NCBI GenBank assembly: GCA_016207515.1
Contig: JACQPN010000002.1
Coordinates: 12,350-76,349, forward strand
DNA: 64,000 bases
Direction: 5' to 3'
Source: Methanobacteriota archaeon
GTDB lineage: Archaea; Thermoplasmatota; SW-10-69-26; JACQPN01
Below the pieces are notes generated by a model, which was not told the DNA's origin, did no database searches, and was given only the letters and a program-made list of their open reading frames with translations. The translations under genes were made by a program, and so were the position numbers. Positions 12,586 to 58,804 of this stretch are shown here, piece by piece. Position 1 is the stretch's first letter; each line of letters starts with the position of its first letter.

Positions 12586-14109
12586 ATGGATGGGCTGAAG
12601 CTCGTCGTTAGGCTTTTCGACATCGACCTCGGCAAGTACCAGGTGATCCTCCACGAGAAGGACGCCGAGGAGCTCGGCATCCACTCGCAGGACCGCGTGA
12701 AGATATCGCGCTCCGACGAGACGATCACCGCGATAGTCGACACGACCGATTCCTTCATCGAACGCGGGCAGGTCGGGGTCTTTTTCGAGGTCCAGCAAAG
12801 GCTCGAACTGACGGAAGGCAACACGCTCAAGGTCGTCCCCGCCGACAAACCGGCGAGTGTCGCTTACATCAGGAAGAAGATGGAGGGGAAGGACCTCTCG
12901 CGCGAAGAGATAGACACGCTCATCCGCGATGTGGTCGACGGCAGCCTAACAGACATCGAACTCGCGGCCTACGTCACGAGCATCCAGATCCGTGACATGA
13001 ACCTGCGGGAGGTCGAGGACCTCACGAACGCGATGGTGAAGTACGGCGAGGTGATCGATTTCGAGGGCGCCGAGATCTTCGACAAGCACTCTATAGGTGG
13101 CGTGCCGGGGAACAAGATCTCGCTGCTCGTCGTCCCCATTGTGGCGGCGGCGGGGCTGCTCATCCCGAAGACCTCGTCGAGGGCGGTGACGGGTGCGGCG
13201 GGAACGGCCGACATCATGGAACTCTTTTGCAACGTGCGCCTCTCGGCCGAGGAGATCAAACGCATCACGCTCGAAGTCGGAGGTGTCCTCTCATGGGGCG
13301 GTGGCGTGAACCTCGCCCCTGCGGACGACATCATCATACGCGTCGAGCATCCCCTTTCGCTCGATCCCCGCTCGCAGCTCCTTGCGAGTGTCATGGCGAA
13401 GAAGAAGGCGGTCGGGGCGCGTAACGTCGTCATCGACCTTCCGATGGGCGAGGGCACGAAGATCGTCCAACAGGACGAGGCCCGTAAGATCGCCCGCGAC
13501 TTCATCGACCTCGGCGAGAGGCTTGGGATGAAGGTGGAATGCGCGATAACGTACGGTGGGCAACCGGTGGGAAAGGCCATCGGCCCTGCGCTCGAGGCGA
13601 ACGAGGCGTTGCTCGCGCTCAACAACGGCGACGCGCCGCAATCGCTCGTCGAGAAATCCGTCGGCATCGCCGGGATGCTCCTGGAGATGGGCGGCGTCAC
13701 GGCGCGCGGCAAGGGCCGCAGACTCGCCCAAGAGATCCTTGAAAGCGGGAAGGCGCTGCAGAAGTTCGACGAGATAGTCATAGCGCAGGGTGGCATGAAA
13801 CCGAAGGAGCAGGAGATCGGCCGTCACTCGGCCTCGATCCTCGCTCCAAACGGCGGTTACCTCACGGGCGTTGCGAACCGCCGGCTCGTCCACATCGCGA
13901 GGCTCGCCGGCGCCCCAAAAGACGGTGGCGCGGGCGTCGTCCTTCATAAGAAGCGCGGTGACAAGGTGGACACGGAGGAGCCGCTTCTGACGATCTATTC
14001 GAGTTCGGAGTACAACCTCAAGACGGCGCTCGCGGAGGCGAAGCGGGGCGTGCCGGTCACGATCGAAGGCATGGTTCTCCAACGCGTGCCGGACTTCCAG
14101 GAGTTTTGA
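12586..14109 (+). CDS. AMP phosphorylase (archaeal thymidine phosphorylase-family enzyme with N-terminal extension)
   Basis: 507 aa; nucleoside phosphorylase family II motifs (DKHSIGGVPGNKISL, SSRAVTGAAGTAD) plus the ~80-aa N-terminal domain typical of archaeal AMPpase. Confidence 0.88.
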   Translation: MDGLKLVVRLFDIDLGKYQVILHEKDAEELGIHSQDRVKISRSDETITAIVDTTDSFIERGQVGVFFEVQQRLELTEGNTLKVVPADKPASVAYIRKKMEGKDLSREEIDTLIRDVVDGSLTDIELAAYVTSIQIRDMNLREVEDLTNAMVKYGEVIDFEGAEIFDKHSIGGVPGNKISLLVVPIVAAAGLLIPKTSSRAVTGAAGTADIMELFCNVRLSAEEIKRITLEVGGVLSWGGGVNLAPADDIIIRVEHPLSLDPRSQLLASVMAKKKAVGARNVVIDLPMGEGTKIVQQDEARKIARDFIDLGERLGMKVECAITYGGQPVGKAIGPALEANEALLALNNGDAPQSLVEKSVGIAGMLLEMGGVTARGKGRRLAQEILESGKALQKFDEIVIAQGGMKPKEQEIGRHSASILAPNGGYLTGVANRRLVHIARLAGAPKDGGAGVVLHKKRGDKVDTEEPLLTIYSSSEYNLKTALAEAKRGVPVTIEGMVLQRVPDFQEF

Positions 14110-14151: not shown

Positions 14152-15432
14152 TCACGCCGGCAGCCGCGCGTAGAATTCGATGATGACGAGCGCGGCGACG
14201 CCGACGGCCGCGGCGGCCGCTATGGGCAAGGCGACGCGCTCGGCCACTTTCTTGTTGGCGGAGCGGACGATTATGAACTTGTTCACGGTGCTCAACGTCA
14301 TCGCGGCCACGGCCGTGAGGGCGGCGACTTTGAGGGGGATCGTGCCGCTCGCGTAAAGGAGCGTAACGGATGCGACGACGGCGGCCGCGTGGATGAAGCC
14401 GCCGAGCGCGGTCGCGTAGACGCCGGATTCGCCCCGTCCCGAGGCGAAGAACGCAAAGCCCGCGAGAAGCGCGAAGAGGGCGCCGAACTTCACGGCCGGC
14501 CAGATGGCGAACGGGTTCTTGAGGGCGATAGTGGCCGCGTCGTCGACGTCGCGGTCATGTTTCAAGAACGACGCTCCTACACAGATGCACGCCATCGCCG
14601 CCGCCGGGATGAGCAGCACCTGCGCGAGGCGGAGACTCGGGTCGACGAAGGCGGCTATGGCTAGGTTGCGCCCAAACATCGCGGCCGTCGCAAGAAGTGT
14701 CCCTGCCGCCGCGTGGGCGACCAGGGAAGGGTTCGCGGCGGCTATCTGGCCGAGGGATGCGGCGGTGGCCTCGGAGTTGACGAGACCGCCGAGTAGGCCC
14801 GCGGCGACGATCCCGCGGCGCGCCCCGATCTGGCGCATACCGATGAACGATGCGAAGGAGAAGGCGGAGACGAAGACGACGATGAGGATTATCGTGCGCA
14901 GGTTCCAGATGCCCCACGGGTCCAGGGGGCCGTCGGGCGAGAGCGGGTAGAGGATGAAGGCGATGGTCACGAATTGGAGCGCGGCGCTTATCTCGTCGTC
15001 GGAGAGGTGGTGCGCTATGAGGTGGAGCCGGCGCTTCGTGAGAAGCAGCCCGGTCGTCATCACGGCTATTATCGTTCCTTCGAGGAGGAATCCGTAGCCG
15101 ACCATTACGCCGACGAGGTAGATCACAAAGATCGACATCGGGGTCGTGAAGCCGGTCTCGCCGAGGAGGTGGCGCACCACGAACATGCTGATGGCGAATA
15201 TGCCGGCCATCGCGAGCCCGAACGCGACGACGAGCCCCGTGTCGGAGGCGATGGCGAGTTGTTGCGTGAGTAGCCCCGCGACGGCGATGAGGGGGAAGGT
15301 GCGCACCCCCGCTATGACGAGCTTCTTGTCCGTGCGGTGCTCGCGTTCGAGCCCCACGAGAAGGCCTGCGCCGACGACGACGGCGAGCTTCACGAGGAAC
15401 TCGAAACTGACTTGAAACTCCAGGCCGGCCAC
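14152..15432 (-). CDS. MgtC/SapB family membrane protein with DUF4010-like C-terminal domain
   Basis: 426 aa, ~10 TM helices; N-terminal LVGLEREHR motif typical of MgtC. Confidence 0.8.
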   Translation of the reverse strand: MAGLEFQVSFEFLVKLAVVVGAGLLVGLEREHRTDKKLVIAGVRTFPLIAVAGLLTQQLAIASDTGLVVAFGLAMAGIFAISMFVVRHLLGETGFTTPMSIFVIYLVGVMVGYGFLLEGTIIAVMTTGLLLTKRRLHLIAHHLSDDEISAALQFVTIAFILYPLSPDGPLDPWGIWNLRTIILIVVFVSAFSFASFIGMRQIGARRGIVAAGLLGGLVNSEATAASLGQIAAANPSLVAHAAAGTLLATAAMFGRNLAIAAFVDPSLRLAQVLLIPAAAMACICVGASFLKHDRDVDDAATIALKNPFAIWPAVKFGALFALLAGFAFFASGRGESGVYATALGGFIHAAAVVASVTLLYASGTIPLKVAALTAVAAMTLSTVNKFIIVRSANKKVAERVALPIAAAAAVGVAALVIIEFYARLPA

Positions 15433-15686
15433 TTTGTCCTCGTCTCTCGAAGGTGGGCCCGTGGCTTAAAATGCGAGAGTCCGAGCACGCAAGATCGCGC
15501 GGTCTCGCCCGTTCTCCGTGGACGGTCTTCTTGCTTAGGCGCCGCACGCCGGTCCATGTGTCCGGACTTCCCGCGGCATGGAGGGTTCCTCGGCCCTTGC
15601 GAGTCCTTGCGGCCACCGGGCCTCCCCGCGTGGGCAGTAGCCTATATTACCCATTACCACATCTTCGCGCCGTCGGAGTGATGTGA

Positions 15687-15905
15687 CTGGCGAAACAGCC
15701 GGGGGAGAACTGCAAGAAGTGCGGGCATTGGGGCTCGTCGCCCGAGTTCGGTTTCGATGACCGGACAGGCTATTGCAACGCCCACGAGAAGCTCACCAGC
15801 GCCGATTACTGGTGCGACCTATTCATCTCAAAAGAGAAGTACCAGAAGCAGCAGGATGAGCTCTACGAGCAGATCGAGTCGGAAAGCGGGGAGTTCGAGG
15901 AATAG
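15687..15905 (+). CDS. putative small zinc-binding protein, no canonical start codon in frame
   Basis: Protein-like frame ...ENCKKCGHWGSSPEFGFDDRTGYCNAHEKLTSADYWCDLFISKEKYQKQQDELYEQIESESGEFEE*; the only nearby ATG (15681) is immediately followed in frame by TGA; not in the ORF track for that reason. Confidence 0.3.
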   Translation: MAKQPGENCKKCGHWGSSPEFGFDDRTGYCNAHEKLTSADYWCDLFISKEKYQKQQDELYEQIESESGEFEE

Positions 15906-15968
15906 TCGCGCTAGTACGTACTTATAGGTATATGCGCCCTTGATTCGATTCCGCTCCACTCGGTAGCA

Positions 15969-15977
15969 TTTTTATAC
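15969..15977 (+). promoter_or_regulatory. TATA-box-like element upstream of small membrane ORF
   Basis: tttttatac ~25 nt upstream of ATG 15999, consistent with a leaderless archaeal transcript. Confidence 0.4.
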
Positions 15978-15998
15978 ACCTCCGGCATCTTCCGGCCG

Positions 15999-16181
15999 AT
16001 GCGTTTCTCCATCTGGACGGCCGTGAGCCTCCTCCTGGTCGTCTTCGCCGTGGTCTTCTACGCGTACATGTACAGCATCACCGGCCGCTGGTTCGAGCAG
16101 GGTGTCTACGCGGTGACGGTGATCCCCCTGGGCTTTGGCCTCGCTGGCCTGTATCTCACGACGCGCGGGAACCCGCAGTAG
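15999..16181 (+). CDS. small membrane protein (2 TM)
   Basis: 60 aa, two hydrophobic helices; TATA-like box ~25 nt upstream. Confidence 0.5.
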   Translation: MRFSIWTAVSLLLVVFAVVFYAYMYSITGRWFEQGVYAVTVIPLGFGLAGLYLTTRGNPQ

Positions 16182-16416
16182 CCGTGCACCGGTCACGGGC
16201 CGCGTAGCGCTGCACTTCCGGCGCGATGGGCTTTTTCCCGGAACATCACGCTCTGCCCGCCAGACCGCTTCGTTCCATGCTGCCAAACCCGATCGGGCTG
16301 GCCGGGTCACCCTTTTCCCAGGGGGACGTCGCGTGCAGGTATGGGCCTTCTCGCCGTCTGATGGCATCGCGAATCCAGGCGTCGGGGTAATCTAGCGGGA
16401 GTGCGATCCACGTCCC

Positions 16417-34846: not shown

Positions 34847-35005
34847 GTGTTTACATGGTTGTAAGACAAGATAAAGTTTACTGCTGGTTCTTACGGCCCA
34901 GGAGGGAAGTTGGTTGCACGGCGTGGGCGCCTTCGCGACCGACGTGCGAACCCGCCGACACCGCCGGTTAGTTATTTATACTTCGTCAGCGCACGTATAC
35001 ATTGT

Positions 35006-58306: not shown

Positions 58307-58399
58307 TGCGCCTCTGGCGCTTGGCGCGAAGCCATCTTCTACTGGCTCAACCTATAAATACAACGACGGCTAACCGGGCTCGCTCAGGTTCGTGATAGA

Positions 58400-58804
58400 T
58401 TGTCTTACGTTGATCTCTTGAAGCGCGGGCGAAGCCAGGTGCCGGACAAGGTGAAAGGCGACATTCGGTTCGAGATGCCGAAGGCGGAGACGCTCGATGA
58501 AGGGAAGGCAACGGTGATCTCCAACTTCAAGCAGATCTGCGATTCGCTCCGGCGTGACCCGGACCACGTCTTGAAGTGGCTTCAACGCGAGTTGGGCGCA
58601 CCGTGCGTGAATTCAGGAGGCCGCGCGATCATCCAAAGGAAGCTCGGTCGCAACGCCGTGAACGAGAAGATGGAGGAGTACTTGCGCGAGTACGTTCTCT
58701 GCAACGAGTGCGGAAAACCCGACACGCATTTCGAGAAGGACCACCGCGTCCATATCCTCCGCTGCGAGGCGTGCGGCGGGCACCGCCCCTTGAAATCGGG
58801 GTAG
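58400..58804 (+). CDS. translation initiation factor 2 subunit beta (aIF2-beta)
   Basis: 134 aa, TTG start; C-terminal C2-C2 zinc ribbon (CNECGKPDT...CEACGG). Confidence 0.85.
   Translation: MSYVDLLKRGRSQVPDKVKGDIRFEMPKAETLDEGKATVISNFKQICDSLRRDPDHVLKWLQRELGAPCVNSGGRAIIQRKLGRNAVNEKMEEYLREYVLCNECGKPDTHFEKDHRVHILRCEACGGHRPLKSG

Follow-up and report, generated by a model that had tools for sequence, protein, structure and literature searches.

The subject of this analysis is a gene without a canonical start codon in a 64,000-nucleotide (nt) stretch of a metagenome-assembled genome (MAG) of a Methanobacteriota archaeon (GTDB lineage Thermoplasmatota; assembly GCA_016207515.1, contig JACQPN010000002.1), called the window below. 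The open reading frame (ORF), here named Cys4 for its four conserved cysteine codons, begins at CTG 15687, continues for 71 more sense codons and ends with TAG 15903-15905. Directly in front of the CTG and in the same frame lie GTG (15678), ATG (15681) and TGA (15684), and a start-codon scan of the frame 15687-15905 found no in-frame ATG, GTG or TTG up- or downstream of the CTG. Two diverged relatives serve for comparison: L001, a 1.3-kb Logan contig encoding the closest called homologue (P0001; 83% identity), and L013, a 934-bp contig of JGI metagenome 3300036851 that was found via a 61-amino-acid (aa) member of the neighbouring gene's 90% cluster. The window sequence across the promoter-to-ORF junction reads ...cCGGAGTGATGTGACTGGCGAAACAG..., and its features are the following (residues of Cys4 are numbered from CTG 15687 in the window):

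15633-15650, plus strand: putative promoter, a TFB recognition element (BRE)-like GGCAGTAG followed by a TATA-like CCTATATTAC (15641-15650); the window, L013 and L001 share AGTAG-yCT-wwATTA
15675-15682, plus strand: Shine-Dalgarno (SD)-like GGAGTGAT, in which GTGAT matches the archaeal consensus GGAGGTGATC; GTGATC in L001
15678-15686, plus strand: GTG-ATG-TGA, a pseudo-start followed by a stop, both in frame; interpreted as part of the SD element with a 4-nt spacer (GTGA)
15687-15905, plus strand: Cys4 ORF, 72 codons from the proposed CTG to TAG, encoding (M/L)AKQPGENCKKCGHW...EFEE
15711-15815, plus strand: four conserved cysteine codons, C9 (15711), C12 (15720), C30 (15774) and C43 (15813)

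The frame escaped every annotation that we consulted. It is omitted from the ORF listing of the window and has no protein in the NCBI MAG record (locus-tag prefix HY556), where the consecutive accessions MBI4392291 to MBI4392294 are AMP phosphorylase, an MgtC protein, a 60-aa protein and replication factor C (RFC), with no accession for Cys4. The Logan contig matching the window has no gene call at this position, and the JGI call at the L013 locus is a spurious 93-aa antisense ORF. The gene finders missed Cys4 because it lacks an ATG, GTG or TTG start. A sequence-only reading of the window had described a convincing peptide frame without canonical start, an ATG at 15681 followed immediately by in-frame TGA, and a TATA-like cctatattac upstream; the scan and the sequence confirm the first two of the start region, the TATA-like element is present at 15641-15650, and the peptide is supported by its coding signature, its homologues and purifying selection, as follows.

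The frame 15687-15905 is a functional, unannotated gene under purifying selection. Its GC content at codon positions 1, 2 and 3 is 0.54, 0.36 and 0.82, the same signature as that of other genes in this 63% GC window, and an exhaustive HMMER search yielded a Cys4 family of 20 proteins of 48-134 aa. Between the window and L001, 25 of the 40 differences in the ORF fall at third codon positions, and the nonsynonymous and synonymous divergences (dN 0.11, dS 0.98) give a dN/dS of 0.11. Between the window and L013, 17 codons differ, 15 of them synonymously and two conservatively (K54R, S67G), with no indel and no stop (dS 0.54, dN 0.014, dN/dS 0.027); at most two nonsynonymous among 17 changes have a probability of P=1e-9 under neutrality. 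The third-position GC, the 20-member family, synteny in six loci (see below) and the dN/dS against L001 are the reasons for which we judge the gene to be real.

Other ways of placing the coding sequence fared poorly. A frameshift from another frame was rejected, as the other two frames end early and lack conservation, and so was an N-terminal extension through the upstream frame 15453-15686, which is rich in Arg, includes the promoter and could not be aligned with L013 or L001. The 48-aa call P0013, which begins at an internal Met, was considered as a second start-less case and dismissed: at L004 305 an in-frame ATG lies upstream, and the protein is merely under-called. Further relatives were sought by several routes. 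A word-indexed protein search with the Cys4 peptide matched P0001 only, back-translated pattern scans with the peptide or the family alignments gave no match in genome contigs or metagenome contigs, and the spurious antisense ORF of L013, looked up by its cluster, led to no additional contigs. An RFC-anchored scan of genome contigs had no match either, and therefore there is no close GTDB species representative.

Given a real gene, the in-frame TGA must be explained. A sequencing or assembly error at 15682-15686, or recoding of TGA (as selenocysteine or as a reassigned codon), were a priori options of the sequence-only reading, and MAG assemblies do contain errors. Logan contigs L002 (SRR12113385) and L003 (SRR12113390), assembled separately, are identical to the window including ATGTGA, giving the same sequence in three assemblies of the population, and the diverged L013, from another sample, carries the same GTGATGTGACTG and the same GGAGTGATGTGACTG; GTG-ATG-TGA is thus identical in L013, L002, L003 and the window. 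On the strength of the two independent assemblies and of L013, the error proposed at 15684-15686 is rejected. As for recoding, TGA is the commonest stop of the window, terminating 21 of 40 confidently coding ORFs. ARAGORN detected no tRNA gene in the window, so no suppressor tRNA was found there, and neither a selenocysteine insertion sequence (SECIS) nor any other Rfam family matched, even at E<=5 in 15400-16300. In L001 the codon aligned with TGA is AGA (GTG-ATC-AGA, with the spacer CAGA in place of GTGA), and not TGT or TGC; recoding of the UGA is not supported. Error and recoding alike we regard as highly improbable. The comparison indicates that ATG-TGA is neither an assembly error nor a fresh pseudogene, and that the start-less configuration is kept in two diverged lineages, those of the window and of L013.

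Initiation at CTG 15687, with GTG-ATG-TGA serving as SD element and spacer, is the best-supported reading, and we favour it with modest conviction. We do so on account of the SD match and its spacing, the onset of conservation and the lack of any other near-cognate codon. A 9-nt block, CGGAGTGAT, which contains the SD-like element, is invariant in the window, L013 and L001: L001 reads GGAGTGAT-CAGA-CTG-GCA-AAA-CAG, and the window and L013 read GGAGTGAT-GTGA-CTG-GCG-AAA-CAG. The aligned spacing from GTGAT to CTG is 4, and SD-led genes in the window use 3-6. An SD match of at least 5 nt at spacing 3-6 precedes 8 of 30 gene starts in the window (27%) and 3.6% of random positions, a 7-fold enrichment, as in these examples:

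49590: GGTGAT-N6-ATG
53485: GGTGATC-N2-ATG
59109: GAGGTGA-N4-ATG
58400: GTGAT-N3-TTG

No correctly spaced SD element was found for GTG 15678 or ATG 15681, and between the TGA and the first conserved cysteine (C9) no near-cognate codon other than CTG 15687 occurs. Compared with L001, CTG-GCN-AAA-CAG-CCG-GGN-GAR is kept, LAKQPGE being identical despite three synonymous changes and a dS of ~1. In the promoter-to-TGA segment, at 69% identity overall, the 4 nt between CGGAGTGAT and CTG differ at two positions. Since LAKQPGE and CGGAGTGAT are identical while the bases between them differ at 2 of 4, amino-acid conservation begins exactly at the CTG. No canonical start precedes the essential residues, in L013 as in the window, and a spaced ribosome-binding signal is present, as expected of a CTG-initiated gene. 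The suggestion of a rare CTG start by the sequence-only reading thus turns out to be the best supported of its options, short of proof. The literature lends some support: of the putative alternative initiation sites in ribosome profiling of Haloferax volcanii, ~30% were near-cognate (PMC7261190), CTG starts have been verified in leadered bacterial genes (PMC4007540, PMC5960689), and the starts regarded as canonical for archaea are AUG, GUG and UUG (PMC7531240).

The geometry of the promoter points in the same direction. Counted from the first base of the TATA box, the start codons lie at these distances:

60-aa gene downstream of Cys4, leaderless, plus strand: box 15971, ATG 15999, +28
gene at 35005, leaderless: box 34975, +31
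leadered genes in the window: +41 to +56
Cys4, GTG 15678: box 15641, +37
Cys4, ATG 15681: box 15641, +40
Cys4, CTG 15687: box 15641, +46

In the clear leaderless genes of the window the ATG lies at +28 to +31. CTG at +46 fits the leadered class, with a leader of ~15 nt carrying an SD element; GTG at +37 fits neither class. Transcription from the TATA box at 15641-15650 would start ~15 nt upstream of 15687, and the short leader would carry GGAGTGAT. A small ribosomal subunit bound there would place CTG 15687 in the P site, initiation would use the initiator Met-tRNA, and GTG-ATG-TGA would be noncoding, serving as SD element and spacer. The GTG called as the start of P0001 in L001 is then probably an artefact of the gene caller, for which this codon, inside the SD element, was the only legal choice.

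Some observations elsewhere touch on this architecture. In the window, the promoters at 58351-58402 and at 1386-1341 (minus strand) share a CCTATAAATAC box resembling the CCTATATTACC of Cys4. The gene at 58400 apparently uses its GTGAT-N3-TTG at +49 from the box; its arrangement of TATA box, short leader, GTGAT and weak start codon is the same as that proposed for Cys4. At L001 753-790 (minus strand), GGGTGAT-ggt-CTG lies in frame six codons upstream of the GTG called for MgtC, and the upstream G-L residues resemble the N-terminus of the window's MgtC protein (MAGLEF...). Here the clade may have another SD-CTG arrangement; the N-termini of the orthologues also allow the shorter GTG start.

Several points weigh against initiation at the CTG. 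Such initiation is, to our knowledge, rare in prokaryotes and undocumented for this lineage, and the 64-kb window holds no other SD-plus-CTG candidate. This 5' architecture is found in three sequences only, those of the window, L013 and L001, the last of which has an uninterrupted in-frame GTG. Of the more distant orthologues, L004 and L005 appear leaderless with ATG, and L009 was called with TTG. The SD match is 5 nt contiguous (8 nt with one bulge), for which a chance rate of 3.6% is not negligible. Both the CTG start and the N-terminus rest on sequence, and the transcription start is predicted.

A further point concerns the age of the TGA. Comparison of window 15570-16181 with L013 1-640 showed that divergence is mosaic across the locus (differences per aligned nt):

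15570-15632, far upstream: 32/57, effectively unalignable
15633-15686, promoter to TGA: 3/54
15687-15708, codons 1-7: 0/22
15709-15905, rest of the ORF: 18/197
15906-15998, intergenic: 14/93
60-aa gene, first 132 nt: 4/132
60-aa gene, last 51 nt: 9/51

The pattern suggests recombination between populations or constraint at the nucleotide level, and the TGA-bearing segment could, through recombination, be younger than the divergence of the ORFs. It would then allow a different history, in which GTG 15678 was the ancestral start, a CA-to-GT change (ATCAGA to ATGTGA) put a stop at codon 3, and the ORF persists as a tolerated null or weak allele, un- or barely expressed; its conservation would mostly predate the mutation or reflect recombination of the 5' segment. 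L001, with its open GTG-ATC-AGA-CTG and a called start reading M-I-R-L-A-K..., resembles the supposed ancestor, 'R-L-A' recurs in the more distant L009 homologue, and the window showed no further gene with a CTG start. Set against this are the occurrence of the TGA on two backgrounds whose ORFs differ by 8% in nt, with 15 synonymous and two nonsynonymous changes and neither indel nor stop, and the position of GTG 15678, without SD element and at an odd distance from the TATA box. A leaderless reporter of H. volcanii, moreover, was no longer translated once its AUG had been replaced with GUG (Hering 2009, as cited in PMC4007540). A disabling change would also have to fall within 2 of 75 codons. 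Even when the segment is aged at its own 3/76 differences, ~7 nonsynonymous changes are expected neutrally and at most two are seen (P=0.03), and this most conservative view leaves the evidence for selection after the TGA at only P ~0.03. We consider a null allele unlikely.

The same segment could also be selected for what it does to ribosomes. An obligate non-standard event at an AUG-UGA 'start-stop', be it reinitiation on CUG or readthrough of UGA-C, would make GTGATGTGACTG a selected translational control element instead of an SD element with a neutral spacer. The strong conservation of the promoter-to-CTG segment, which differs at 3 of 76 positions between the window and L013, as against 38% at synonymous sites, is compatible with it; we hold it to be a minority possibility. 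Of its two forms, readthrough would have the ribosome initiate at GTG or ATG and pass the UGA-C, yielding M(M)-X-LAKQ.... In bacteria as in eukaryotes, UGA-C ranks as the leakiest stop context, two canonical starts lie near the predicted 5' end, and the AGA of L001 is one base from UGA. TGA-C is the most frequent stop tetranucleotide of the window (7 of the 21 TGA stops) and so shows no sign of avoidance as a leaky context, RNA folding around the start revealed no stimulatory structure (z-score -0.57), and the absence of an Rfam or SECIS match noted above applies here as well. With two inefficient steps needed together and the conserved SD spacing to CTG left unexplained, we think readthrough quite improbable.

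In the other form, ribosomes would start at AUG 15681 (or at GUG 15678), stop at once at the neighbouring UGA and begin anew on the CUG that abuts it, with the minimal AUG-UGA ORF as a lineage-specific means of bringing ribosomes to a weak start or keeping them there. The adjacency of ATG, TGA and CTG, identical in the window, L013, L002 and L003, and the unusual conservation of the segment between the window and L013 speak for it. A parallel exists in L009 (560-610; JGI 3300036852), where the called start is a TTG without SD element: ATG 576, out of frame and preceded by a well-spaced GAGGGG, opens a 6-codon ORF ending with TGA 594-596, 5 nt before an in-frame CTG-GCC that encodes L-A as at the window N-terminus. 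The parallel may be coincidence, and the ATG-TGA element is absent from L001, which keeps SD and CTG. We know of no documented reinitiation at CUG, and coupling of this kind adds a step that explains nothing beyond plain SD-led initiation at CTG. It too seems to us an improbable account, and SD-led initiation at CTG 15687 stays the reading that we prefer.

The product of Cys4 is probably a 72-residue cytoplasmic protein with the fold of a high-potential iron-sulphur protein (HiPIP) that binds a [4Fe-4S] cluster or another metal. In an alignment of 21 sequences the columns of C9, C12, C30 and C43 are invariant or nearly so and W15 and G28 are also conserved, giving the spacing C9-x2-C12-x17-C30-x12-C43 with W15 and G28-Y29-C30. 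The sequence-only reading had noted a CxxC...CxxH...C arrangement; its cysteines are conserved, and its histidine (H33) is not, replaced as it is by L in the closest homologue and by W in the majority of family members. Pfam and NCBIfam gave no family at threshold for the Cys4 peptide, with no Pfam match at E<=10, and the HiPIP family of Pfam is absent from the matches of all 21 members at E<=1. Searching the family profile against all PDB sequences placed two Ectothiorhodospira HiPIPs on top (E=0.19 and 0.26), whose cluster cysteines align with C9, C12 and C43; the cysteines of Cys4 line up with those of 2hip and 1pih and, in the profile match, with the cluster cysteines of the E. halophila HiPIP. 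The AlphaFold2 model (pLDDT 86.6) contains an acidic C-terminal helix at residues 49-68, and Foldseek ranks 1-7 are the HpdC small subunit 2y8n_B and six HiPIPs at a TM score of ~0.5, with probabilities of 0.57-0.95 (>=0.80 for ranks 1-6) and <=0.07 for all lower matches. Three family members weakly match NF033716, the HPA decarboxylase small subunit (E=0.014; scores under the cut-off). We assign a HiPIP-type [4Fe-4S] fold because three independent weak signals, from the PDB profile, the predicted model and NF033716, converge. The earlier label 'zinc-finger-like' was a reasonable guess; the cysteine pattern, predicted fold and weak profile matches favour the HiPIP type instead. Only eight residues precede the first cysteine, and no hydrophobic N-terminus is seen in the window, L001 or most members.

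Around Cys4 lie two conserved neighbours and a short palindrome:

14152-15432, minus strand: MgtC/DUF4010 membrane protein, divergent from Cys4; 100% identical to NCBI MBI4392292.1
15912-15922, no strand assigned: palindrome TAGTACGTACT, 7 nt after the ORF stop
15999-16181, plus strand: leaderless gene for a 60-aa protein with two hydrophobic segments; own TATA box at 15971-15978, ATG 28 nt from the box start

In every locus with enough flanking sequence (the window, L001, L004, L005, L010 and L013), a homologue of the 60-aa protein is encoded directly downstream of Cys4. Members of this partner family (60-65 aa) share invariant S10, Y21, G29, W31 and the motif G35-V36-Y37, and belong to no Pfam family. 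We speculate that Cys4, constantly paired with a membrane protein, acts at the membrane in redox reactions or metal handling. P0117, which shares 50% identity with the 60-aa protein, was examined as a further case and has no Cys4 gene upstream. The divergent MgtC/DUF4010 arrangement also occurs in L001 and L005, where upstream sequence is present, and relatives of the window's MgtC protein are labelled Thermoplasmatota; for P0022, an MgtC protein at 86% identity, the contig ends before the Cys4 locus. Beyond MgtC, AMP phosphorylase (12586-14109) has 507 aa in the Logan and JGI calls and 504 aa in NCBI MBI4392291.1, and therefore the annotations choose different start codons.

In the intergenic DNA downstream of Cys4, the window, L013 and L001 have an identical TAGTACGTAC (15912-15921), L013 carries an A at 15922, and TAGTACGTAC(T) is kept while the surrounding sequence diverges. 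GTACGTAC is present at just two places of the window, 15914 and 26580, with 0.31 occurrences expected by chance. The palindrome may be a binding site for a regulator or, read on the minus strand (TATAAGTAC), a TATA-like element.

Cys4 is thus a concrete, selected protein-coding gene that has no canonical start and is invisible to PGAP and to the Logan and JGI gene calls; gene finders pass over it, or in L013 place a spurious ORF on the opposite strand, for the sole reason that no ATG, GTG or TTG start exists. If CTG initiation is true, the gene would be a natural case of obligate near-cognate initiation in archaea, on a short SD-bearing leader, and would aid the study of start-codon stringency of the aIF1/aIF2 machinery. 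The analysis also defines an uncharacterised HiPIP-fold Cys4 family, without Pfam or NCBIfam model and with the examined loci from Thermoplasmatota-type archaea, whose pairing with a tiny membrane protein makes it a possible membrane-associated redox or metal-handling module.

Compared with known proteins, Cys4 is neither a member of PF01355 nor a classical zinc finger. It does not match the hidden Markov model of the HiPIP family (PF01355), is predicted to share its fold, and follows the HiPIP spacing C-x2-C-x(13-16)-C-x(13-15)-C with aromatics to within 1-3 residues. HiPIPs are exported to the periplasm with a signal and have a [4Fe-4S]3+/2+ cluster of high potential, whereas Cys4 has no signal or Tat peptide, hence a cytoplasmic location; it further differs by the extra acidic C-terminal helix and the archaeal host, and its cofactor is predicted. 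The small subunits of glycyl radical enzymes (HpdC, BssB/TutG, MasB) have a HiPIP-like [4Fe-4S] cluster too; Cys4 scores below the cut-offs of these families, and at the loci examined no gene for a glycyl radical enzyme adjoins it, the neighbours being MgtC/DUF4010, the 60-aa membrane protein, the RFC large subunit and AMP phosphorylase. Haloarchaeal zinc-finger µ-proteins (C(P)XCG type) and zinc ribbons are likewise archaeal, shorter than 80 aa and endowed with four cysteines, and Cys4 shares one CxxCG (CKKCG) with them. Zinc-finger µ-proteins need two CxxC motifs, however, and Cys4 has one, its C30 and C43 being 12 residues apart; zinc-ribbon matches were sporadic (E>=0.06 in 1-2 members), and matches to zinc-finger folds had probabilities below 0.1.

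At the level of translation, minimal start-stop upstream ORFs likewise place ATG-TGA just in front of a coding frame. They are known from longer 5' untranslated regions before a canonical main start, whereas the ATG-TGA of Cys4, as a putative element of this kind, is absent from L001. CTG is a permitted start in translation table 11. The nearest parallels are the verified CTG-initiated genes, Deinococcus deserti rpsL, E. coli plasmid repA and ano of enterohaemorrhagic E. coli, for which N-terminal peptides or reporters gave the proof; as here, the mRNA is leadered and CTG is the only start, and these genes were likewise missed or mis-started by standard gene finders (PMC4007540, PMC5960689). 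Those cases are bacterial and experimentally confirmed, whereas Cys4 is archaeal, with initiation of the aIF2 type, and is inferred from sequence. While CTG-type initiation and HiPIP-fold proteins are already known, the feature that sets Cys4 apart from the verified CTG genes is an in-frame ATG-TGA that directly abuts the start and is maintained in two lineages.

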